From positions 1 through 32,276 of IMG/VR virus record IMGVR_UViG_2703718849_000002: a DNA stretch of 32,276 bases; one strand, 5' to 3'. The position numbers and the translations under genes were made by a program. This stretch comes from a virus (Duplodnaviria; Heunggongvirae; Uroviricota; Caudoviricetes). The notes under the pieces were generated by a model, which did no database searches, was not told the origin of the DNA, and saw only the letters and a list, made by a program, of their open reading frames with translations. Positions 10,506-32,136 of the stretch are shown in pieces; position 1 is the stretch's first letter, and every line of letters starts with the position of its first letter.

Positions 10506-10678
10506 TAGCGATAATTTTACTCATCATCCTTCACATCTGGCTCTGTAGACAGGATGGTGATCACTTCTGGAGTGAATCCAGATTAAACATCTCATTGCTG
10601 ATGCTTGATATTGAGCATCTTGCGCGCGGTAAGGGGCTGCGTTGAGATAAGAGCCAGTCATTACAAATACTAGGATTT

Positions 10679-10704
10679 AGCCTCGCATTTGCGGGGCTTT
10701 TTTA
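10679..10704 (+). terminator. Rho-independent terminator downstream of the lysis cassette
   Basis: Stem AGCCTCGC/GCGGGGCT with 4-nt loop followed by TTTTTT. Confidence 0.6.
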
Positions 10705-10848
10705 CATCTGCAGTAAACCGCGCATCGCAGCGCGTAACAATCCCGAGTCTTTCAGAAAGCTGAGCCTGAGAACTGCCGTATATGGTGGCGACCATCTCGG
10801 GGCGGCTTTTCTGTGCGAACAGGCTCATCTTTCTAAAAGGTAAACGCT

Positions 10849-11334
10849 ATGAATAACTTTGTTGAAATTACCTCAAGAATTGGTCGCATGTACCAAGATT
10901 TTCTTATAAGTGGAAAGGGGTCTGGCGACATCATAGAGGAAATTGACAAGCTAAGTGCAGAGCTGAGAAGGAATGGGTGTGTTAATTCTATCTTTTTTGA
11001 AACTTTGCTAAAGCAAGGCTTCATGTTTGACATGATTAATTACAACAAAGTCGCACCCAGTGCTTCGCAAAAATCATATGTGTACGTTCTGCATGCTGAA
11101 GATAGTGGGCTAACAAAAATAGGGTTTAGTCGCAGGGTTAATAAACGGATTTCAGAGATATCTCGCATGAGTGGTGGGAAGCTAAATCTAATTGCAAAGA
11201 TTCCGGCCGATAGAGAGCTTGAAACCAAATTGCACCAAAAATATTACAACTATAGGTCGCACGGGGAGTGGTTTAGTCTCAATCGTTGTCATTTGAAAGA
11301 GCTAAAAGAAATGCCTGGTAACGAACTGAAATAA
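10849..11334 (+). CDS. Moron gene: T5orf172/MUG113-type GIY-YIG-like domain protein (C-terminal half) with an N-terminal domain of unknown function
   Basis: 161 aa; C-terminal SYVYVL…KIGFSRR…RISE…H…EWF pattern typical of T5orf172 domains; visibly lower G+C than neighbours; flanked by non-coding DNA. Confidence 0.6.
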   Translation: MNNFVEITSRIGRMYQDFLISGKGSGDIIEEIDKLSAELRRNGCVNSIFFETLLKQGFMFDMINYNKVAPSASQKSYVYVLHAEDSGLTKIGFSRRVNKRISEISRMSGGKLNLIAKIPADRELETKLHQKYYNYRSHGEWFSLNRCHLKELKEMPGNELK

Positions 11335-11581
11335 TCCCCGGACTCACCAATTAACGGCAGTACCGCGAAACAACCCAAGCCAGTAAGTGGGGAAATAACA
11401 CTGGCAGCCACTGAAAGATGAACCTCCTGCCTTATGGCAAAAAAGATTCTTTGTGGTGGCGGACTGATGGAAAGACATCGGTTATTGCAGAGGCCATTCA
11501 ATGAGTGGTCTCGACAATGGCTTATACCCTACACGGGATAACTTAACTGATATCCCTTTTAACGGATAAACGGAGCCAACA

Positions 11582-11824
11582 ATGGCAGAGATTATTCCCA
11601 TGACTGAAGAACAGAAATTCCAGTTAGAGATTTACAAGCTGGTCATGAACCAGAACGCAGCCGCAGAGGAAGCATTTCAGTTCATTGGCACTGACGAACT
11701 GAAGCTTGAGCTATTCAAAATTCACTTCCAGTCAGGCGGCGCTAATTCAGATATCACGATCCGCACATTTGAAGCGGTACGTAAATCGAAGGAAGCGTTA
11801 GACCTGTTCACCACCGGAGCATAA
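11582..11824 (+). CDS. Hypothetical small protein immediately upstream of terS
   Basis: 80-aa ORF with SD (ACGGAGCC), ends 2 nt before the terS ATG. Confidence 0.5.
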   Translation: MAEIIPMTEEQKFQLEIYKLVMNQNAAAEEAFQFIGTDELKLELFKIHFQSGGANSDITIRTFEAVRKSKEALDLFTTGA

Positions 11825-11826
11825 AC

Positions 11827-12267
11827 ATGGCGCGCCCAACAAAGTATCAAGAGGCGTATGCCGAACAGGCACGCAAACTGTGCTTGCTGGGCTACACCGA
11901 TGCAGAGCTTGCTGATTTCTTCGAAGTTAGTGAGTCAACTATTAACAAGTGGAAGCTTGATTATCCTAAGTTTTCGGAGTCCGTAAAAAAGGGTAAGGCC
12001 GTCGCTGATGCAGAAGTTAGTGATCGTCTTTATCAACGCGCTATGGGCTTCGTGGCTCCAGACATCGATATTCGTGTTATTGAAAACAGAATTGTCGAAA
12101 CTCCGCTTGAGAAGTATTACCCGCCTGATACAACAGCTGCCATCTTCTGGCTTAAGAACCGACAGAAGGATAAATGGCGCGACAAGGTTGATCACGAGCT
12201 AACAGGCAAAGACGGCGGCGCAATTCAGATTGAAACATCACCGATGAGCACTCTATTCGGAAAATGA
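11827..12267 (+). CDS. terS: Terminase small subunit (Sf6 gp1-like, headful/pac type)
   Basis: 146 aa; C-terminal GKDGGAIQIETSPMSTLFGK matches the Sf6 small terminase as remembered; HTH-like N-terminal segment. Confidence 0.75.
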   Translation: MARPTKYQEAYAEQARKLCLLGYTDAELADFFEVSESTINKWKLDYPKFSESVKKGKAVADAEVSDRLYQRAMGFVAPDIDIRVIENRIVETPLEKYYPPDTTAAIFWLKNRQKDKWRDKVDHELTGKDGGAIQIETSPMSTLFGK

Positions 12268-13676
12268 CCTCGATTAATCCTATCTTTGAACCGTTCATTG
12301 AGGCGCATCGCTACAAAGTCGCCAAAGGCGGTCGAGGTAGCGGTAAGTCATGGGCAATTGCGAGGCTGCTTGTTGAAGCGGCGCGTCGGCAGCCTGTGCG
12401 TATTCTTTGCGCTCGTGAACTGCAAAACAGTATCAGCGATTCGGTAATCCGGTTGCTTGAAGATACCATAGAGCGGGAAGGGTATTCGGCTGAGTTTGAA
12501 ATTCAGCGTTCAATGATTCGTCATCTCGGAACGAATGCTGAATTCATGTTCTATGGCATCAAAAACAACCCGACGAAGATTAAATCGCTCGAAGGCATTG
12601 ATATCTGCTGGGTGGAAGAAGCGGAAGCGGTAACGAAGGAATCATGGGATATCCTGATACCAACCATCCGCAAGCCGTTTTCCGAAATATGGGTGAGCTT
12701 TAACCCTAAGAACATCCTCGACGATACCTATCAGCGATTCGTCGTAAATCCTCCCGATGATATTTGTCTGCTGACGGTGAACTACACCGACAACCCGCAC
12801 TTTCCTGAAGTTCTCCGTCTGGAGATGGAAGAGTGTAAACGCAGAAACCCGACACTGTATCGTCACATCTGGCTTGGTGAGCCGGTAAGCGCAAGTGATA
12901 TGGCAATCATCAAACGTGAATGGCTTGAAGCCGCAACCGATGCGCACAAGAAACTCGGATGGAAAGCGAAAGGTGCGGTTGTTTCTGCGCATGACCCGTC
13001 AGATACAGGGCCAGATGCTAAAGGTTACGCATCGCGTCACGGTTCGGTGGTTAAGCGCATTGCCGAAGGTCTGCTGATGGACATCAACGAGGGTGCTGAC
13101 TGGGCTACTTCGCTGGCGATTGAAGACGGCGCTGACCATTACCTGTGGGACGGTGATGGCGTCGGTGCGGGCCTACGCAGACAGACAACGGAAGCGTTCT
13201 CCGGCAAGAAAATCACCGCCACGATGTTCAAGGGAAGTGAATCGCCATTCGATGAAGATGCGCCGTATCAGGCCGGAGCATGGGCTGATGAAGTCGTACA
13301 GGGTGACAACGTTCGCACTATTGGTGATGTGTTCCGCAATAAGCGAGCGCAATTCTATTACGCGCTGGCTGACAGGCTGTATCTGACATATCGGGCGGTT
13401 GTCCACGGTGAGTATGCAGACCCCGACGACATGCTGAGTTTCGACAAAGAAGCGATAGGCGAGAAGATGCTGGAGAAGCTGTTTGCAGAACTGACGCAGA
13501 TTCAGCGCAAATTCAATAACAACGGGAAGCTGGAGCTAATGACTAAGGTCGAAATGAAGCAGAAGCTCGGTATTCCATCTCCTAACCTGGCTGATGCGCT
13601 GATGATGTGTATGCATTGCCCGGCATTGGTCCGCGAAGAAACAGAAATATACGTTCCCTCATCCTCCGGTTGGTAA
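12264..13676 (+). CDS. terL: Terminase large subunit (ATPase/nuclease)
   Basis: 470 aa; Walker A KGGRGSGKS; position between terS and portal. Confidence 0.9.
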   Translation: MTSINPIFEPFIEAHRYKVAKGGRGSGKSWAIARLLVEAARRQPVRILCARELQNSISDSVIRLLEDTIEREGYSAEFEIQRSMIRHLGTNAEFMFYGIKNNPTKIKSLEGIDICWVEEAEAVTKESWDILIPTIRKPFSEIWVSFNPKNILDDTYQRFVVNPPDDICLLTVNYTDNPHFPEVLRLEMEECKRRNPTLYRHIWLGEPVSASDMAIIKREWLEAATDAHKKLGWKAKGAVVSAHDPSDTGPDAKGYASRHGSVVKRIAEGLLMDINEGADWATSLAIEDGADHYLWDGDGVGAGLRRQTTEAFSGKKITATMFKGSESPFDEDAPYQAGAWADEVVQGDNVRTIGDVFRNKRAQFYYALADRLYLTYRAVVHGEYADPDDMLSFDKEAIGEKMLEKLFAELTQIQRKFNNNGKLELMTKVEMKQKLGIPSPNLADALMMCMHCPALVREETEIYVPSSSGW

Positions 13677-13678
13677 AC

Positions 13679-15805
13679 ATGGCAGAGACATTAGAGAAAA
13701 AACATGAGCGGATCATGCTCAGGTTTGACCGCGCCTATTCTCCACAGAAGGAAGTGCGCGAAAAGTGCATTGAAGCTACGAGGTTTGCTCGTGTCCCCGG
13801 AGGTCAATGGGAAGGAGCAACGGCGGCTGGAACTAAGCTTGATGAGCAGTTCGAGAAGTATCCTAAGTTTGAAATCAATAAGGTAGCAACTGAACTTAAC
13901 CGCATCATTGCAGAATACCGCAATAACAGAATAACCGTTAAGTTTCGTCCTGGTGACAGAGAGGCAAGCGAAGAGTTAGCCAATAAATTAAATGGTCTGT
14001 TCCGTGCTGACTACGAAGAAACTGATGGCGGTGAGGCTTGCGATAATGCATTTGACGACGCTGCTACTGGTGGTTTCGGTTGCTTCCGTTTGACGTCGAT
14101 GCTGGTCAATGAATACGACCCCATGGACGATCGTCAGCGTATTGCTATTGAACCAATATACGACCCGTCGCGCTCTGTGTGGTTTGACCCTGACGCTAAG
14201 AAGTACGACAAATCTGACGCGTTGTGGGCGTTCTGTATGTATTCGTTGTCACCTGAAAAATATGAGGCTGAATACGGAAAGAAACCTCCTACTTCTCTGG
14301 ATGTAACGTCTATGACCAGTTGGGAATATAACTGGTTTGGTGCAGATGTTATTTACATAGCGAAGTATTACGAAGTTCGTAAAGAGTCTGTTGACGTCAT
14401 CAGTTATCGACATCCAATCACTGGAGAGATTGCAACATACGACAGTGATCAGGTTGAAGATATTGAAGATGAACTGGCAATAGCTGGATTTCAGGAAGTG
14501 GCAAGGCGCTCAGTGAATCGCCGTCGTGTGTATGTATCCGTAGTGGATGGTGATGGTTTCCTTGAGAAAACTCGACGTATTCCTGGTGAGCATATCCCTC
14601 TCATCCCGGTTTATGGAAAACGCTGGTTCATTGATGACATTGAGCGTGTCGAAGGACATATTGCAAAAGCAATGGATCCACAGCGTTTGTACAACCTTCA
14701 GGTATCAATGCTGGCTGATACTGCAGCGCAAGACCCCGGTCAGATCCCTATAGTTGGCATGGAGCAAATTCGTGGACTTGAGAAGCACTGGGAGGCTCGC
14801 AACAAGAAACGACCAGCGTTCTTGCCGTTGCGCGAAGTGAGAGATAAATCTGGCAACATTATCGCTGGAGCTACCCCGGCAGGATATACACAGCCTGCGG
14901 TTATGAATCAGGCATTGGCTGCATTACTACAGCAAACCAGTGCTGATATTCAGGAGGTTACAGGCGGCAGTCAGGCCATGCAGCAGATGCCAAGTAATAT
15001 TGCTCAGGAAACGGTTAACAACTTGATGAACAGAGCAGATATGGCTTCGTTTATCTATCTGGACAATATGGCGAAAAGTCTTAAACGCGCTGGTGAAGTA
15101 TGGCTGTCAATGGCGCGTGAAGTGTACGGTTCAGAACGTGAAGTGCGCATCGTTAACGAAGATGGAAGTGATGATATCGCTGTCCTGAGCGCACAGGTTG
15201 TTGACAGGCAAACAGGGGCTGTTGTTGCGTTAAATGACCTTTCTGTCGGTCGATACGATGTGACGGTTGATGTTGGACCAAGCTACACAGCACGACGTGA
15301 TGCAACGGTTTCTGTACTGACAAATGTCCTTAGCTCTATGCTTCCAACAGACCCAATGCGTCCGGCAATTCAGGGTATTATTCTGGACAATATCGATGGC
15401 GAAGGCCTTGATGACTTCAAAGAGTACAACCGAAACCAACTGCTGATATCTGGCATTGCAAAACCACGCAATGAGAAAGAGCAGCAGATTGTTCAACAGG
15501 CGCAAATGGCAGCACAAAGCCAGCCAAATCCTGAAATGGTTCTCGCTCAGGCGCAAATGGTAGCAGCGCAGGCAGAAGCGCAAAAAGCAACTAACGAAAC
15601 TGCTCAAACTCAAATCAAAGCATTTACTGCCCAGCAGGATGCGATGGAGAGTCAGGCAAACACTGTCTATAAACTGGCTCAAGCCAGAAACATCGATGAC
15701 AAAGCAGTGATGGAGGCAATACGCCTTCTGAAAGATGTCGCCGAGTCACAACAACAGCAATTCCAGTCACCACCACAGTCTCCGGCAGACTTAATGCCGA
15801 GTTAA
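13679..15805 (+). CDS. Portal protein (P22 gp1-like)
   Basis: Start taken at MAETLEKK (13679) just after the terL stop; motifs such as GEHIPLIPVYG and RRRVYVS resemble the P22 portal. Confidence 0.9.
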   Translation: MAETLEKKHERIMLRFDRAYSPQKEVREKCIEATRFARVPGGQWEGATAAGTKLDEQFEKYPKFEINKVATELNRIIAEYRNNRITVKFRPGDREASEELANKLNGLFRADYEETDGGEACDNAFDDAATGGFGCFRLTSMLVNEYDPMDDRQRIAIEPIYDPSRSVWFDPDAKKYDKSDALWAFCMYSLSPEKYEAEYGKKPPTSLDVTSMTSWEYNWFGADVIYIAKYYEVRKESVDVISYRHPITGEIATYDSDQVEDIEDELAIAGFQEVARRSVNRRRVYVSVVDGDGFLEKTRRIPGEHIPLIPVYGKRWFIDDIERVEGHIAKAMDPQRLYNLQVSMLADTAAQDPGQIPIVGMEQIRGLEKHWEARNKKRPAFLPLREVRDKSGNIIAGATPAGYTQPAVMNQALAALLQQTSADIQEVTGGSQAMQQMPSNIAQETVNNLMNRADMASFIYLDNMAKSLKRAGEVWLSMAREVYGSEREVRIVNEDGSDDIAVLSAQVVDRQTGAVVALNDLSVGRYDVTVDVGPSYTARRDATVSVLTNVLSSMLPTDPMRPAIQGIILDNIDGEGLDDFKEYNRNQLLISGIAKPRNEKEQQIVQQAQMAAQSQPNPEMVLAQAQMVAAQAEAQKATNETAQTQIKAFTAQQDAMESQANTVYKLAQARNIDDKAVMEAIRLLKDVAESQQQQFQSPPQSPADLMPS

Positions 15806-15818
15806 CCAGGAGTAATCA

Positions 15819-16703
15819 ATGGAAAACGAACTGATCATCGACGGTCAGGTTATTGACCTGTCTGAAACACAGGAAAATGCAGAAGAAACCATCATCCAAA
15901 CAGAGTCACAGCCTGAGAATGAAAGCCAGGATGACAACGGAAAAGAGATGGCAACTGATCCTGAAAAAACCGAAGAGACACCAGAAGATTACGCCTTGCG
16001 TATTGGTGATGAAGAAATTCAGCTTAACGCTGACGATGATGATCACATTGACGGGCAACCTGCACCGCAATGGGTGAAAGATCTTCGCAAAGGCTTCAAA
16101 GAAACACAGAAAGAAAACCGTGAGTTGCGCCGCCAGCTTGAGGAAGCATTAGCCAAGCCTGCGGAACATCAGCAACCACAACCAGACGCTATTCCACCAA
16201 AACCGACTCTTGAGTCGTGTGATTATGACGAACAGGCGTTTGAACAGGCATTGACTGATTGGCATGAGAAAAAAGGCCGTGTCGAACAGCAGCAGCAACA
16301 AAAACTACGTCAGCAACAGGAATACCAACAGCGTTTCCAGCAAAGGGTAGAAGCGCATAAACAACGGGCAGCCAAACTTCCTGTGAAAGATTATCAGGAA
16401 ATGGAGGCCATTGTTCTTAGTGAGCTACCACCAATTCAGCAGGAAATCATCATTCACTGTGCAGACGAAGGCTCTGAACTACTCGCCTATGGCTTAGGTA
16501 AGAGCCAGCAATTACGCCAGCGTGTAGCCGCTGAGACAGATCCAATTCGCGCAGCATTCCTCTTGGGGCAGATTAGCAAACAGGTAAGCCTTGCTCCAAA
16601 ACCAAAGAAAGCCATCAAGCCAGAGCCGGAAGTACGTGGTGGCGGTGCTGATGCGAAACAAGACGAATTCAACAAATTATGCCCCGGCGCAAAAATAGAA
16701 TAA
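15819..16703 (+). CDS. Scaffolding protein (P22 gp8 analogue)
   Basis: 294 aa, acidic N-terminus, Q/E-rich helical region, basic C-terminus; located between portal and coat. Confidence 0.65.
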   Translation: MENELIIDGQVIDLSETQENAEETIIQTESQPENESQDDNGKEMATDPEKTEETPEDYALRIGDEEIQLNADDDDHIDGQPAPQWVKDLRKGFKETQKENRELRRQLEEALAKPAEHQQPQPDAIPPKPTLESCDYDEQAFEQALTDWHEKKGRVEQQQQQKLRQQQEYQQRFQQRVEAHKQRAAKLPVKDYQEMEAIVLSELPPIQQEIIIHCADEGSELLAYGLGKSQQLRQRVAAETDPIRAAFLLGQISKQVSLAPKPKKAIKPEPEVRGGGADAKQDEFNKLCPGAKIE

Positions 16704-25869: not shown

Positions 25870-28071
25870 ATGCCAGATATCACCGCAAATGTTGTGGTCA
25901 GCATGCCTTCGCAACTCTTCACTATGGCGCGTTCTTTTAAAGCCGTAGCCAATGGTAAAATTTATATCGGAAAAATTGACACTGACCCGGTAAATCCTGA
26001 AAACCAGATTCAGATTTATGTGGAAAACGAAGACGGCTCTCACGTTCCTGTATCCCAGCCAATCATCATTAACGCCGCTGGTTACCCTGTATATAACGGA
26101 CAGATTGCCAAATTCGTAACTGTGCAAGGCCATTCTATGGCTGTGTACGATGCGTATGGAGCGCGGCAATTCTATTTTCCTAATGTGCTGAAGTATGACC
26201 CTGATCAACTTGAACAGCGATTATCACTGCCTACAGCACCTGAGATTATAGGGGTATATCCATCAGGTAAATTAGCAGATGTATTAAATGATGTAACCCC
26301 GGAGCAATTCGGAGCTATCGGTGATGGGGTTGCTGACGATACGCAGGCATTAAAGGCTATGTTTAAATACATCAATGACATGCCGATTTCATTCACAGAC
26401 ACAGCAACAGAACTTAACCCCCACCTGGATGTGGCAGCAAAACGTGTTGTTTTGCGCGGCCTGTACATGCACACAGAGACAATCTTTATCCCTTCTGGGG
26501 TGCAGATTTTCCAGCCTGGATACTCTTATTTCCGCCGAAACGTGCAGCAAGGTTTTTACTTCAACCCTCCTTCTGGCGAAGGTAACATGGCTGCTGTAAG
26601 CACCTGTGTTTATTTGAAGTCTGGTAATACCTGGTATCTTAATTCTGACCCAATGTTACTTCCACATGGTGCACAGATAGATGACGGCACTATCCGCACA
26701 GGAGCCAGACACATTGATATTGAGAATCTTAGTATCATTACCAAGCCTGGAACCTTGCTTGGTTTACGCTGGCTAGGTGCAGCAGGATGCACAACTCGCA
26801 ATCTAAGTATTGGTGAGAACACACCAAGCAGCACAGCATCAACCGCCAGAATTCCTAAGGTCGGTATGCTTCACAGTATTGCTTGGGGCAGTGTTCACAC
26901 AACACCTAAGATTCTATACAAAACTCAAGGTGCTGTTTTCTACGAGCAAAACGGTGGTTCTGAGGTGAAAAACGCTTACATTGCTCGTCTTGGTCAGGAT
27001 TCAACTTATTCAGAACAGGTAATTTATAAACCGGAAGATTTTGACGAAACCGGCGATGTCGCAATTACACAGTACGGGCGCAGTTCTGTGCAGTTCAGGT
27101 ATTGTGTAACAGAAACATGCTCATTCATGTATGTTAACCAGGGTGATGCAGGAAGTAACGGCGGACTTAAGGTTGACGGTTGTCACATGGAAGCCACGGG
27201 TGGTAAGGCGAAACATTGTTTCTATATTATCAACTCGGACGCTGACATCCGTCTAAATGGTCTTTTCATTCAAGACGAAAGTATAGCAAACAGTTCAGTG
27301 GTCTACGTCAAGAGCTGCGTTAAGGGTCGTAGTGTTGTAGATATTCACGGTTACATGATGTTCAACGGTTACAGGTTCCTTGACGGCATAAACTCTGGAG
27401 CTGTAGTCAACATACGAAATCCCAACAATGGCCAGTTCCAGTATGGAAAACTTGGGAAATGGGATTTAGTTAATGAAGTTACAGGCATTTCACCTTCAAC
27501 GTTATACATCGACCCAGTTAACGGTAATGATGAAAATTGGGGTCTCAATGGAGCGCGTGGTCTAAAATCTTTGAAACATGCTGCCAAAATTTGCAGAATG
27601 CTTGAAATAAACGACGTTTACACCAACGCAGGAAGTATAAATTTAACGGAAGATACAGAGTTACCATCAGCCACAATTCGTGGCCTAGGCGGTATTGTGT
27701 GCAATGCTGATGGTAGTTTGATTGCATTGCGTAAAACGAATGTAAATCTGACGTTGAATGGAGGTGTAACAAGCCCTGCCGGGTATCACTTGATCAAAGT
27801 TGCCACCACTGAGCCAGTAAATGTAGTTTCCACTGGAGACATGACAACTACAACATCTGCTAATATCTTTCTGTTTCAAGCAAACGGTAATGTTGAATGG
27901 ACGCATAGGGCCGGTGGTGGCCTAGCCTGCTATCGATATGCCGGGACGCAGTCTGTATCGTTCTCGGCAGTGATTGGTTTGAATATCAGGTCTACAACCA
28001 GACCAGCTATAGATTCGACACCTGTATCTGGTAATGTTGTTACTAAATACTCTTCTATTTTGAACTCTTAA
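25870..28071 (+). CDS. Tailspike protein: conserved P22/Sf6-type N-terminal head-binding domain fused to a divergent beta-helix receptor-binding domain
   Basis: Start at [10 protein letters not shown] (25870); first ~110 aa resemble P22/Sf6 tailspike N-termini; the remainder carries a [15 protein letters not shown] pectate-lyase-like motif. Confidence 0.9.
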
Positions 28072-28073
28072 AA

Positions 28074-28097
28074 ATATAGACCCAGTAGGGTCTATAT
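28074..28097. terminator. Bidirectional terminator hairpin between convergent tailspike and gtrC
   Basis: Perfect 10-bp inverted repeat ATATAGACCC/GGGTCTATAT with 4-nt loop, A/T-flanked on both sides. Confidence 0.7.
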
Positions 28098-28101
28098 AAA
28101 T

Positions 28102-29514
28102 TTAACATTTATGTTCAAAGTCTATTACAAAAACATCACCTTTTCTCATTAGGGTAAGTATTTTATTCTTCTTTATAATTTCGAATGAACACATTTCAGA
28201 TATCACTTTATTGCGCATGCTTTTTTCAGGGTATGATTTGGAGCTTGCTATTCCATTAACCCTTAAGTAACTAACACCCCATGACCATGAATTAGACATG
28301 TAATTTGGAGATAATTTATATATTATAGGAAACTTTTGTGCTAGCTCATAGTATACCGGACTTCTTGGCATAGACCCATTAATTACAATTAATGGATCTT
28401 CTACTTTTAAAACATCACCCTGCACCAAGTTTATAACCTGAATCCTTCTTTGCTCATCAGCTTTTAGTGCAGATGCATATGAAGAGCAGAGCACAAAAGA
28501 AAAAAACAAAAGTATTGTGTACGACAACTTGATTAATTTATTAACTCTAATTCCGATAAAAATTAAAGGGATGTACAGCAACAGAGATATACCAACCGAT
28601 GTCCTGGGTGTAAACCATGGATCTGAGAGAATTAAATTAGAGCCAGGAGATATGATTATTGCCAAAATCGTGAAGAATACGGCAACAACTAAAGCGGAAT
28701 GGTTTTTTCTGTAAATAAAAAAGTTATGCAACACTGAAATAGACAAGATTGATATTAATGGAAGTAAATAGTAAAAATAACCACTGTTAAATAGTGGTAG
28801 TAAGATTATACTTATGAATTTCTCATAGTTATTAACTAATCCATGAAAAAAATGATCTATGCCAATTACTTCATCTCTTCCGTTGAAGTTTAGTGTCAAA
28901 TAATAAGACAGAAACTTGTATAATACAATAGACAATACAAAACTTAATAATGAGATAGATAAAAATTTTAGTGATTCAATTAATGAGTTTGATCCTTTGG
29001 TGACTGAATTTGCTGCTATAATTAATGCTGCTACTGGATATAAAAAAATACTGTTTTGATAAATAAAAAGAGAGATTAATAGAAGTGATGTGGATGAAAT
29101 TAAAAATGCAACATTATTCCCCTTGAAAATCAAAGGGATAAATACCAACAGGATTGATAATGATATTGGAAGAGAATCGAATCTGTATGATAAAATCTCA
29201 ATTGCCATTGGCGATGTTGCAATTATAGATGAAGATAATATCAATATATCATCATCTAAATTCATCGACTTAGAAAACAAATAGCCTACATATGTTAAAG
29301 TAATCACTGAAATTATTTGAGAAAATGGAAAAAAATCAGTAATAGGCGTGCCGAAAGTGATGATATTATAAATAAGGTCTGATAATGGTCTTCCGTCAAT
29401 AGCCCAACCATATCCCAAGTGAGATCTATTTATATCATCAACATAGTAATTACCACCAAGTATTATTGGCAAAATAAATGCCAGCGGTATCATGAGTAAA
29501 TATTTATTTTTCAT
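28102..29514 (-). CDS. gtrC: Serotype-specific O-antigen glucosyltransferase (GtrC / Gtr type-specific), polytopic membrane protein
   Basis: 470 aa with many hydrophobic segments; third gene of a gtrA-gtrB operon; strongly AT-rich. Confidence 0.7.
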
Positions 29515-30430
29515 TTTTAATATTCCTTATTATATATCGCGGCCTGTTTTTTGTTTCTATGTATATTCTTCCAATATACTCGCCAAGAACACCAATTCCT
29601 ATCAGCTGTACACCGCCAAGAAACAGAATTGATACCAAAATTGATGGGTAGCCACGAACAGGATTGCCAAACGCGACAGTATCAAAAATAAGCCACGTCC
29701 CATACAGAAACGACAGCCCTGCCACGAACAATCCTATATATGTCCACATGCGCAATGGAAAAGTTGAGAAACTGGTGATTCCTTCAAGCGCGAGATTCCA
29801 CAGCTTCCAGCCATTGAACTTGCTGTCACCAGCTATGCGTTCTGCGCGAGCATACTCGACGACGTCAGTCTTTCCACCAACCCAGCTAAGTATGCCTTTC
29901 ATAAACAGGTTGCGTTCAGGCATTGATTTAATGTTCTCAACCACTTCACGCGACATAAGCCGAAAGTCTCCGACGTTTTCCTCAATCTTCGGATTGCTTA
30001 TTTTATTGTGGAGCTTATAGAACCACTCAGCCGTTTTTCGCTTCAGTCTGCCATCCGTTGAGCGGTCAGATCGTTTAGCAAGCACCATATCAGCGCCTGC
30101 CTGCCATTTTTCAATCAGTTGAGGTATTACCTCAATCGGGTCTTGCAGGTCAACATCAATAGGAATAACAGCATCGCCTGTTGCATGGTCTAACCCTGCA
30201 AACAATGCTGGTTCTTTACCAAAGTTGCGCGTAAATGACAGCGGAACAACTAGCGGATCAGAAACAGCCAGAGCGTAAATTATTGACTCTGTAGAGTCTT
30301 TGCTGCCGTCATTTATGAAAACAATTTCCACCTCATATGGCTTCAACTCTTCGAATTCACGTACCGTTTTATAAAAAATTGGTATCGCTTCTTCTTCATT
30401 GAAGACAGGAACTACAAGAGATATCTTCAT
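29504..30430 (-). CDS. gtrB: Bactoprenol glucosyltransferase GtrB (GT2 family)
   Basis: 308 aa; GT2 motifs (VVPVFNEEE…, …NDGSKD…, DVDLQDP) and two C-terminal TM helices. Confidence 0.9.
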
Positions 30431-30789
30431 TTCGCATCCCTAAAGACAATGAACTTTGAATATACGAAACCGCACACCAGGCTGATGGCGGAGAAAGTGA
30501 TAAGGGTTAGCATCGGGGGAAGTGCGCATCTATCAGCAGCCCATCCAACAGTTGCACTCAGTGTTCCCATGAACCCGACATATAACATGTAGCGCATCGT
30601 TGTGGTCGATGCTTTGAATGTGAATCTTGCATTCGCGAAGAAGCTAAAACTCACAGCCACAACGAAACCTGCGAAGTTTGCCAGAGCCTGATTGGTATGC
30701 GCGGCATAGATACATACACCAAAAACCACCCAGTGTATAAGTGTGTTCAGCACACCAATCGAGGTGTACTTTGCAAATAGCTTTAACAT
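30427..30789 (-). CDS. gtrA: GtrA flippase for undecaprenyl-phosphate glucose
   Basis: 120-aa four-TM protein, highly similar to GtrA of serotype-converting phages as remembered. Confidence 0.9.
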
Positions 30790-30942: not shown

Positions 30943-32136
30943 TCACTCCACCTTTTCATCAATCCAATCCGCCCACCACTGCATCATTTCTCTGCGCTTA
31001 TCGAGATACTGAGCATGGTTGTAAATACCGCGCACAGATCCGCCGTTGGCATGTGCAAGTTGCACTTCAATGGCGTCGGCAGGCCATTCGTGCTCGTTCA
31101 TAATCGTGCTGAATTCATGCCTGAATCCGTGACCGCTTTCCAGACCTTCATAGCCGATTTGTTTGATCACAAGCAGTACCGCGTTCTCGCAGATTGGCTT
31201 CTTCTTATCGTTGCGCCCGGCAAAAACAAACTCTGAGACTGGTTTGGTTATTGAGCTTAGCGTAGTGAGAAGTTCAACCACCTGGTCTGACATAGGAACC
31301 ACATGAATTTTGCGGCCCTTCATCACACTGGCGTCGATAGTGATAATCCTGTTTTCAAAATCGACGTTCTTCCATTGCATGGAACGAAGCTCTTTCGTTC
31401 TTAGGGCTGTGTAGCGTAAAACTTTGGTCGCAATGAGCGATACGATACTTCCTGAAAATGTTGCAAGTGCTTTGTTGAATGCCGGGATCTGGTCTGCTGG
31501 AAGAAACGGGAAGTTCTTCTTGCGGTATCCCTTCATGGCGTCAGCAAGGTCAGGTGCCGGGTTATATTTAGCCCTACCAGTGACAATAGCGTAACGGAAA
31601 ACCTCGCCGCATCTTCTGCGGGCTTTGTTGGCTCGCTCCATTGCACCGCGATCTTCAAATCTGCGGATTACTTCCAGCAGTTGCATCGGCTCAATATCCT
31701 GAATTTCAAGGCCGCCAATGATAGGTAAAATGTCGTCGTCAAACATTTTTGCAAGTTCATTTGCATAGCCTACTGACCAGACTTGCTTCTTGTGCTCGTA
31801 CCATTCCTTGTAAATGGCGCTAAAGGAGTTGTTGTTAGACGAAGCCTTTTTCGCTTTTACCGGATCGATGCCAACCGAGATGTCTTTCCTCGCGGTCCAT
31901 ACTTTATCCCTTGCCTCCTGCAAAGTCATAAGCGGATATTTTCCGACGGTCAGGATTTTCTCCTTACCGTCAATCTTGTAGCGAAGCTGCCATACCTTTT
32001 TCCCTGACACAGGGACATAAAGGTACAGGCCATTACCATCGAGCAGGCGGTATGGTTTTTCTTTCGGCTTTGCTGCTTCAATCTGCTTAACGGTGAGCAT
32101 GGGTAAAAATCCGGTGGGTAAAATTATTTTATCCAC
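30943..32136 (-). CDS. int: Tyrosine integrase (P4-like family with N-terminal arm-binding DUF4102-type domain)
   Basis: 397 aa; N-terminal …YRLLDGNGLYLYV…, catalytic region with …HGFRHEF… and C-terminal tyrosine motif; adjacent to a tRNA 3' end. Confidence 0.9.
   Translation of the reverse strand: MDKIILPTGFLPMLTVKQIEAAKPKEKPYRLLDGNGLYLYVPVSGKKVWQLRYKIDGKEKILTVGKYPLMTLQEARDKVWTARKDISVGIDPVKAKKASSNNNSFSAIYKEWYEHKKQVWSVGYANELAKMFDDDILPIIGGLEIQDIEPMQLLEVIRRFEDRGAMERANKARRRCGEVFRYAIVTGRAKYNPAPDLADAMKGYRKKNFPFLPADQIPAFNKALATFSGSIVSLIATKVLRYTALRTKELRSMQWKNVDFENRIITIDASVMKGRKIHVVPMSDQVVELLTTLSSITKPVSEFVFAGRNDKKKPICENAVLLVIKQIGYEGLESGHGFRHEFSTIMNEHEWPADAIEVQLAHANGGSVRGIYNHAQYLDKRREMMQWWADWIDEKVE

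Follow-up and report, generated by a model that had tools for sequence, protein, structure and literature searches.

A mosaic tailspike in an Sf6-like prophage of Escherichia coli combines a P22-type head-binding domain with a TSP1-type receptor-binding body

Which surface polysaccharide would be recognized by the tailspike of an Sf6-like prophage when the similarity of this protein to the tailspikes of its own phage type ends shortly after residue 113, and where has the remainder of the protein come from? These questions are raised by a gene near the end of the DNA stretch analysed here (hereafter, the window), which comprises 32,276 base pairs (bp) and is the entire contig LOPC01000021.1 of the Escherichia coli assembly GCA_001576235.1 (IMG/VR record IMGVR_UViG_2703718849_000002). 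In the public annotation, the product of this gene, WP_061357754.1, is listed only as ‘hypothetical’ or ‘phage head-binding domain-containing protein’. The first-pass annotation of the window, made from its letters, had described a mosaic tailspike in which a conserved head-binding domain is joined to a divergent beta-helix receptor-binding domain, and a profile match (PF09008), the match to the tailspike TSP1 of phage CBA120 and a structural model all agree with this description. The observation is thus confirmed and its interpretation is supported, with two corrections: the receptor-binding domain is a TSP1-type module, and the ‘pectate-lyase-like’ label that had been attached to it is weak. 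Taking the explanation as a whole, we consider it likely that the protein is the modular tailspike of a temperate Lederbergvirus (P22-like, close to Sf6) that has integrated at argW in E. coli, and that its P22-type attachment domain is followed by a TSP1-type sugar-cutting body, which was acquired by recombination and acts on an E. coli O-antigen.

The first-pass annotation had likened the first ~110 residues to the head-binding domain of the P22 and Sf6 tailspikes, and this likeness is unequivocal. The Pfam profile Head_binding (PF09008) matches residues 1–113 over its positions 1–113 of 113 (E=2.8e-66; score 221 bits, cutoff 24), 102 of these 113 residues (90%) are identical to the N-terminus of Sf6 gp14 (PDB 7SG7), and the identity to the N-terminus of P22 gp9 (PDB 1LKT/2VKY) is about 71–73%. 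At the DNA level, P22-like phages and 1,100 of 5,426 complete E. coli genomes share the 5' part of the gene by megablast, and their similarity ends at nucleotides (nt) 338–359, that is, at residue 113–120. The open reading frame (ORF) extends from the ATG at 25870 to the TAA at 28069–28071 and comprises 733 codons with no internal stops. A longer in-frame start, ATG 25822 (749 residues), was rejected because residue 1 of the shorter product aligns with residue 1 of both Sf6 gp14 and the PF09008 profile, and because the ribosome-binding site fits ATG 25870 and the public gene call is likewise for 733 residues. The DNA of the head-binding domain is 87.5% identical to that of Sf6, compared with 93.5% for IME10 and 91.9% for HK620, whereas the phage backbone is 97% identical to Sf6. 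As its DNA is nearer to IME10 and HK620 than to Sf6, the N-terminal module and the remainder of the late operon appear to descend from different P22-like lineages.

Past this domain, the relationships of the protein change completely. A phmmer search against PDB sequences aligned residues 125–729 with residues 169–767 of CBA120 TSP1 (ORF210; PDB 4OJ5) at E=9.4e-139, blastp gave 40% identity over 610 residues, and PHROGs gave phrog_18484 (E=2.8e-142), the TSP1 family. In the AlphaFold2 model, the predicted local distance difference test (pLDDT) score is 75–94 through most of the body and lower in residues 371–480, the stretch that contains the putative catalytic residues E415, H439 and E441. 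In a Foldseek search against the PDB, the top six matches were all TSP1 chains (E about 1e-42, template modelling score 0.72); other tailspike beta-helices rank next and are weaker by many orders of magnitude. When the subdomain limits of TSP1 (D3, 166–562; insert, 563–623; D4, 624–769; PMC3966878) are carried over, each of the three parts has its counterpart in the window tailspike (see the table). By sequence and by model, the receptor body is accordingly of the TSP1-type (PDB 4OJ5, phrog_18484), with a predicted double beta-helix. The first-pass annotation could not assign this domain to a known specificity; its family, at least, can be assigned. A characterized tailspike with high identity along the full length was not found by blastp; the best match, CBA120 TSP1, covers the C-terminal 605 residues at 40%. 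Pfam detected no match in the window tailspike to PF18668 (Tail_spike_N, corresponding to TD1/TD2); the protein is therefore not an orthologue of TSP1, and the homology is limited to the body. The TSP1 fold family is small: among 1.84 billion representatives clustered at 50% identity, a full HMMER search recovered 34 proteins at E<=1e-10, of which 21 also pass E<=1e-30. A scan with two conserved peptides found no relatives in the GTDB species-representative genomes, and in IMG/VR the single contig with a relative is another prophage.

The borders of the exchanged segment can be located almost to the codon because the same body is found, on entirely different N-terminal anchors, in lytic phages. 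Protein similarity to these homologues begins at residue 114 and DNA similarity at nt 26257, and a junction alignment places the left recombination border (26240–26260) inside a conserved neck motif, E(L/I)IG.(Y/N)PSGKLADV, at codons ~124–130. From nt 26257/26258 the blastn identity of 91–94% spans the gene up to nt 28074–28085; in the junction alignment, the right border (28069–28074) is directly past the TAA stop codon, beyond which each genome has its own, different hairpin. One carrier (P0004, 833 residues) occupies the T7 gp17 tail-fibre position in T7-like metagenomic genomes of about 40 kilobases (kb) and has a PF03906 plus PF18668 N-terminus; another (P0126, 778 residues), with a PF18668 N-terminus, adjoins a second spike on a 71-kb G7C/N4-like contig; and the third (P0129, 1103 residues), in which a long N-terminal extension precedes PF18668, heads a cluster of four spike genes on an Ackermannviridae-type contig of 153 kb. 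What these proteins share with the window tailspike is the body, from codon ~130 to the stop, and here the amino acid identity is 93–94%; therefore, the specificity of the lytic carriers is almost certainly the same. All three carriers are virulent phages known from metagenome assemblies alone, whereas the window contains a prophage. The same or a closely related body was further observed in P0123 (735 residues), behind a short novel N-terminus and PF18668, and in P0007 (828 residues), where residues 1–224 match the tail-fibre family phrog_6921; with these two anchors, at least six anchor types carry the receptor module.

Enzymatic activity of the body is predicted from the conservation of the active site. 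The literature treats TSP1 as a glycosidase with two paired glutamates (PMC3966878, PMC7506556): the adjacent residues Glu456 and Glu483, located in an inter-subunit cleft, were proposed by Chen et al. (PMC3966878) and subjected to mutagenesis by Greenfield et al. (PMC7506556), with His481, Tyr411, Trp380' and Asp313' nearby (PMC3966878, PMC7506556), and halo activity is lost in the E456A:E483A mutant (PMC7506556). In our alignments, D313, W380, Y411, E456, H481 and E483 of TSP1 correspond to D271, W339, Y370, E415, H439 and E441 of the window tailspike. All six positions are kept in every close family member, and the Trp, Tyr, His and second Glu are conserved in 24 of the 24 aligned sequences. 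By analogy with TSP1, the expected chemistry is likely to be hydrolysis, not beta-elimination, and it possibly follows a substrate-assisted mechanism. The first-pass annotation had instead flagged a pectate-lyase-like motif. The 19-residue string is present exactly at residues 146–164 and aligns with residues 190–208 of TSP1 (QYNAVGDGIADDTSKLKEM), with a GDG..DDT string common to both proteins near the start of the beta-helix domain. The lyase label itself is weak: Pfam gave no match to PF12708 at E<=1 in the window tailspike, and close relatives score 16–18 bits (E 0.002–0.009), below the gathering threshold of 27 bits, so that membership in the pectate-lyase family was rejected. At most, the motif bears a faint likeness to such enzymes, located where the beta-helix is capped at its N-terminal end.

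Put together, these features suggest how the spike might operate. Residues 1–113 would dock it, presumably as a trimer, onto the tail hub; a 16-residue neck would be followed by the recombination-acquired 1.8-kb cassette, whose product would fold into two beta-helices, the first of them large and right-handed, with a short insert in between. E415 and E441 would, by homology, lie in an inter-subunit cleft together with H439, Y370, W339 and D271, and the catalytic mechanism would imply an N-acetyl-hexosamine at the cleavage site. Cleavage of the O-antigen would bring the virion gradually closer to the outer membrane, and we propose that the receptor domain would therefore set the host serogroup. 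Homology and gene context both point to a receptor domain that determines O-antigen specificity.

As to which O-antigen this might be, the closest guide is TSP1. Its reported receptor is the O-antigen O:21 of Salmonella Minnesota, an assignment that PMC8432352, PMC10791037 and PMC11721090 credit to Plattner et al. 2019; grafting of TSP1 residues 150–770 onto another phage transferred the S. Minnesota host range (PMC9965104). A 725-residue P22-like tailspike of the same family is found in prophages of S. enterica, mostly of serovar Minnesota where the serovar is named, with one member in Citrobacter portucalensis. This prophage tailspike (WP_065348408.1; cluster P0012) is 59% identical to the body of TSP1 and 46% identical to the window tailspike, and it was a relative of this kind that led to the host assignment of TSP1 (PMC10791037). 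The closeness of the S. Minnesota prophage spike to the TSP1 body indicates that the family tracks the host O-antigen. One could accordingly ask whether the window tailspike has the very specificity of CBA120 TSP1, its substrate being an O-antigen of the Salmonella O:21 type that occurs in a near-identical E. coli polysaccharide or in Salmonella itself. The fold and the catalytic residues are the same, the 40% identity, which extends across more than 95% of the body, would amount to one ‘receptor-binding protein (RBP) subtype’ (>=30% identity and >=60% coverage; PMC10408124), and EP75 TSP1 and HK620 gp9, which are 45% identical, cleave closely related O18 variants (PMC8217332). Nevertheless, we regard a shared specificity as unlikely: the named carriers of the window subtype are all E. 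coli, the S. Minnesota prophage spike has much more in common with TSP1 (59% identity) than with the window tailspike (46%, full length), the receptor-sharing subtypes of Sorensen et al. are 75–100% identical (PMC8432352), and the C-terminal helix of the window tailspike is just 30% identical to that of TSP1. A distinct E. coli O-antigen, possibly one chemically related to that of Salmonella O:21, thus remains our preferred target. No route led to a serogroup: the 5,426 complete E. coli genomes have neither the receptor domain nor gtrC, the contigs of close relatives (10-kb flanks) stop short of the rfb locus, and literature searches on the structure of the O:21 antigen of Salmonella, or on its equivalent in E. 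coli, yielded nothing of use; nor was any mention of the assembly, the contig or the locus-tag prefix found in the literature.

Comparison with alleles in other E. coli prophages (window 26470–27870 against 5674–7875 of L014 and 8001–10202 of L009) points to old allele lineages of a protein that is probably functional. The prophage in L014 is 100% identical in nucleotide sequence to the window over the 2.5 kb upstream of the tailspike gene, and downstream it is 98–100% identical within gtrC through the first part of gtrB, with 99.6% identity of the GtrC proteins. Its tailspike is an 86%-identical allele in which nt ~600–2000 of the gene have merely 64–75% nucleotide and 80–83% amino acid identity. 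In this stretch, the proportion of synonymous differences (pS) is 0.77–0.87, which is saturated, and the non-synonymous divergence (dN) is about 0.15. The L009 allele (P0001) is 97–100% identical up to nt ~1275 of the gene and about 70% identical beyond, and this switch falls inside the main beta-helix, not at a domain border. These patterns imply two old lineages that have been shuffled by recombination within the beta-helix under purifying selection, and the combination of saturated pS with low dN argues that the proteins are functional. It is against this background that one has to view the idea that a defective prophage carries the gene as an inactive relic, or that the gene encodes a spike that binds without enzymatic activity. 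The contig is without roughly 7 kb of the early-left region, as a defective prophage might be, yet the ORF is intact and has a ribosome-binding site, the residues of the catalytic cluster are all kept, purifying selection is strong, the late operon is 97% identical to that of Sf6, and a near-identical cassette resides in lytic phage genomes, where it must function. We consider this idea highly improbable and return to an active O-antigen-cleaving spike.

The genomic context of the gene bears on its substrate. As noted in the first-pass annotation, the tailspike gene lies directly beside a gtr operon for O-antigen modification; this operon (28102–30789, minus strand) is convergent with the tailspike gene and begins 30 nt past its stop codon, and all three products have the expected Pfam domains (see the table). 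Whereas gtrA, gtrB and intS are of the common yfdG/yfdH/intS type found at argW, gtrC is rare: among 50,697 deposited phage records, no GtrC exceeds 27% identity to its product, and blastn of the gene against 5,426 complete E. coli genomes gave no match, not even in distant mode. A GtrC of the window type was seen three times only, in all three cases beside a receptor domain of the present type. By analogy with established P22-like phages and serotype-converting phages of Shigella, Gtr modification would be expected to block this spike: in lysogens, gtrABC with its rare GtrC would glucosylate the same O-antigen that the spike cuts and would block superinfection. The inverted repeat between the two convergent genes folds into a hairpin of about -15 kcal/mol (z about -4.8 on both strands) that has a U5 tail only on the minus-strand (gtrC) transcript; it was found by folding, and a consensus terminator scan listed nothing between the tailspike gene and gtrC.

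The same context weakens the suggestion that the spike acts on some other surface polysaccharide, such as a K capsule, an O-antigen capsule, colanic acid or enterobacterial common antigen. A head-binding domain of this kind is also present in the capsule-specific endosialidase of the P22-like phage CUS-3, the halos that TSP1 produces on E. coli O157:H7 hint at a second substrate (PMC7506556), and the window tailspike matches phrog_8280, annotated as colanic-acid degrading, but this match spans residues 1–167 only. However, the sole receptor assigned to the fold family is an O-antigen, the S. Minnesota prophage relative matches the O-group of its host, and the window gene adjoins an O-antigen glucosylation operon with a rare GtrC that is seen only next to it. 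On balance, a substrate other than the O-antigen seems to us unlikely.

Going one step further, we tentatively suggest, with somewhat less confidence than would make it our expectation, that the subtype to which the window tailspike belongs (P0008, a cluster at 50% identity) represents a new E. coli O-antigen specificity, beyond those of the characterized phage depolymerases. In this proposal, the subtype circulates among at least four unrelated lineages (Sf6-like prophages, T7-like phages, G7C-like phages and Ackermannviridae), is paired in prophages with a matched, rare GtrC, and exists as two ancient alleles (80–83% amino acid identity, saturated synonymous sites) that recombine inside the beta-helix. 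Several points weigh against our interpretation of this tailspike as an O-antigen-cleaving enzyme with a specificity set by the TSP1-type body. The E456Q:E483Q mutant of TSP1 keeps its activity, and the O157:H7 lawn on which TSP1 forms halos is not its O-antigen host (PMC7506556); the mechanism and the substrate range of the reference enzyme are therefore not fully settled. With 40% identity to TSP1, and 30% in the C-terminal helix, specificity is not transferable from one protein to the other. The AlphaFold2 model represents a monomer and has low confidence in the N-terminal domain (pLDDT <50). The receptor domain was detected by neither megablast nor distant-mode blastn in the 5,426 complete E. 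coli genomes, and no domain more than 41.5% identical to it was present in the 50,697 deposited phage records, so that no isolate with a known host has this subtype. Finally, the 91%-identical P0001 allele lies directly beside int, without gtr genes; an obligatory linkage of tailspike and gtr was rejected on account of these prophages, and the link is therefore a frequent one, not an obligatory one.

The rest of the window is that of a P22-like prophage. Its first 25 kb are 97% identical in nucleotide sequence to Shigella phage Sf6 across 74% of the length, and the late operon is complete and in P22-like order (scaffold, coat, gp4, gp10, gp26, gp7, gp20, gp16), followed by an mnt-type repressor gene, the tailspike gene, gtrCBA and an IntS-type integrase gene. 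The tailspike gene is the final gene of the late operon, located past gp7, gp20, gp16 and a remnant of the immI region and ahead of the conversion genes and int. In the window, the immI interval between gene 16 and the tailspike gene (25403–25869) holds a single mnt/arc-type repressor gene; in the P0001-type prophage, the same interval holds mnt, arc, an Ant-like gene (PF10547/PF10548) and an HNH gene. The end of the window matches the argW (tRNA-Arg) attachment region, and no complete tRNA was found in the window. In L014, the region past gtrA (10594–15875) contains chromosomal-looking genes (a PBP5/6-type peptidase of family S11, a GyrI-like protein, a FUSC family protein and DUF496) and no integrase, which suggests a different insertion site of that prophage or loss of int.

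Features of the tailspike gene and its surroundings in the window (coordinates in nt of the 32,276-bp stretch)
Feature	Coordinates	Strand	Basis or remark
Mnt/Arc-type repressor gene, upstream of tailspike	25488..25748	-	PF03869/PF11423 on 86-residue gene call; reduced immI region
Shine-Dalgarno sequence GGAG	25859..25862	+	Read from sequence; 7 nt 5' of ATG 25870
Tailspike gene, 733 residues (WP_061357754.1 / KXR18026.1)	25870..28071	+	ORF list, public gene call
Head-binding (tail-hub attachment) domain, residues 1–113	25870..26208	+	PF09008, Sf6 gp14 and P22 gp9 matches
Neck/linker, residues 114–129 (16 residues)	26209..26256	+	Junction alignment with three lytic-phage homologues
Main right-handed beta-helix (predicted), residues 121–520	26230..27429	+	Equals TSP1 D3 (166–562), 43% identity
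Exchanged receptor-binding cassette (1.8 kb), residues 130–733	26257..28071	+	91–94% nt identity with T7-like, G7C-like and Ackermannviridae carriers (blastn)
19-residue motif flagged as pectate-lyase-like, residues 146–164	26305..26361	+	Near N-terminal start of beta-helix domain
Glu415	27112..27114	+	Equivalent of TSP1 catalytic Glu456
His439-Met-Glu441	27184..27192	+	Equivalents of TSP1 His481 and catalytic Glu483
Non-helical insert between beta-helices (predicted), residues 521–581	27430..27612	+	TSP1 563–623, 44% identity
Second, C-terminal beta-helix (predicted), residues 582–732	27613..28065	+	TSP1 D4, 30% identity
10-bp perfect inverted repeat ATATAGACCC / GGGTCTATAT, terminator-like hairpin	28074..28098	.	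Between convergent tailspike gene and gtrC
gtrC-like gene, serotype-specific O-antigen glucosyltransferase, 470 residues	28102..29514	-	PF14264; phrog_4829, E=8e-91; G+C content 27–33%
gtrB (bactoprenol glucosyltransferase)	29504..30430	-	PF00535; yfdH match, 93–96% nt identity
gtrA (flippase)	30427..30789	-	PF04138; yfdG match
IntS-type integrase	30943..32136	-	Matches intS in complete E. coli genomes

The protein is a new, uncharacterized member of a well-known kind, namely a Lederbergvirus tailspike whose receptor domain is held in common with virulent phages. Conceptually it brings nothing new, since tailspikes are already well known both to exchange modules and to be paired with O-antigen conversion genes. 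With it, the TSP1 fold family, which is small (about 21 clusters), reaches beyond Salmonella O:21 to E. coli; it also offers a clean natural example of a cassette whose left border is a neck motif and whose right border is the stop codon. With the module already on at least four phage chassis, it is a ready-made part, of modest practical value, for host-range engineering, the retargeting of tailocins and serotyping once the serogroup is known.

Modular exchange of receptor domains has been treated systematically by Pas et al. 2023, who described conserved flanking recombination motifs among lytic genera only (PMC10408124), whereas here it is the left junction of a prophage that sits in the conserved ELIG.xPSG neck motif. 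Precedents for an exchange of this kind are the pairs P22/Det7, HK620/EP75 and S. Minnesota prophage/CBA120. In P22 gp9 and Det7 TSP3, as in HK620 gp9 and EP75 TSP1, a beta-helix module has moved between Lederbergvirus and Kuttervirus while the anchors stayed specific to the lineage (PMC8217332, PMC10791037, PMC10408124); the O-antigen targets of these two pairs, unlike that of the window tailspike, are known by experiment. Sf6 gp14, an endorhamnosidase (PDB 7SG7, 2VBM), and P22 gp9 represent the same phage type and gene position as the window tailspike but have no detectable sequence similarity to it past residue ~116. Each has just one beta-helix, with an active site of another kind; the O-antigens that they cut are those of Shigella flexneri Y and Salmonella O4/O9, and Sf6 has oac at the place of gtrABC in the window prophage. 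In CBA120 TSP1 (AEM91896.1; PDB 4OJ5/4OJ6/4OJL/4OJO/4OJP), from a Kuttervirus, the situation is reversed: its body is homologous to that of the window tailspike end to end, in the same D3/insert/D4 layout and with the same Glu-Glu pair and flanking His, Tyr, Trp and Asp, but its N-terminus consists of TD1/TD2 (PF18668), which serve the branched spike complex of Ackermannviridae, in place of the P22-type PF09008, and its host is Salmonella instead of E. coli. The system that unites both halves is the 725-residue tailspike of the S. Minnesota prophage, which has the identical architecture of PF09008 and a TSP1-type body and differs from the window tailspike in its subtype and host species.

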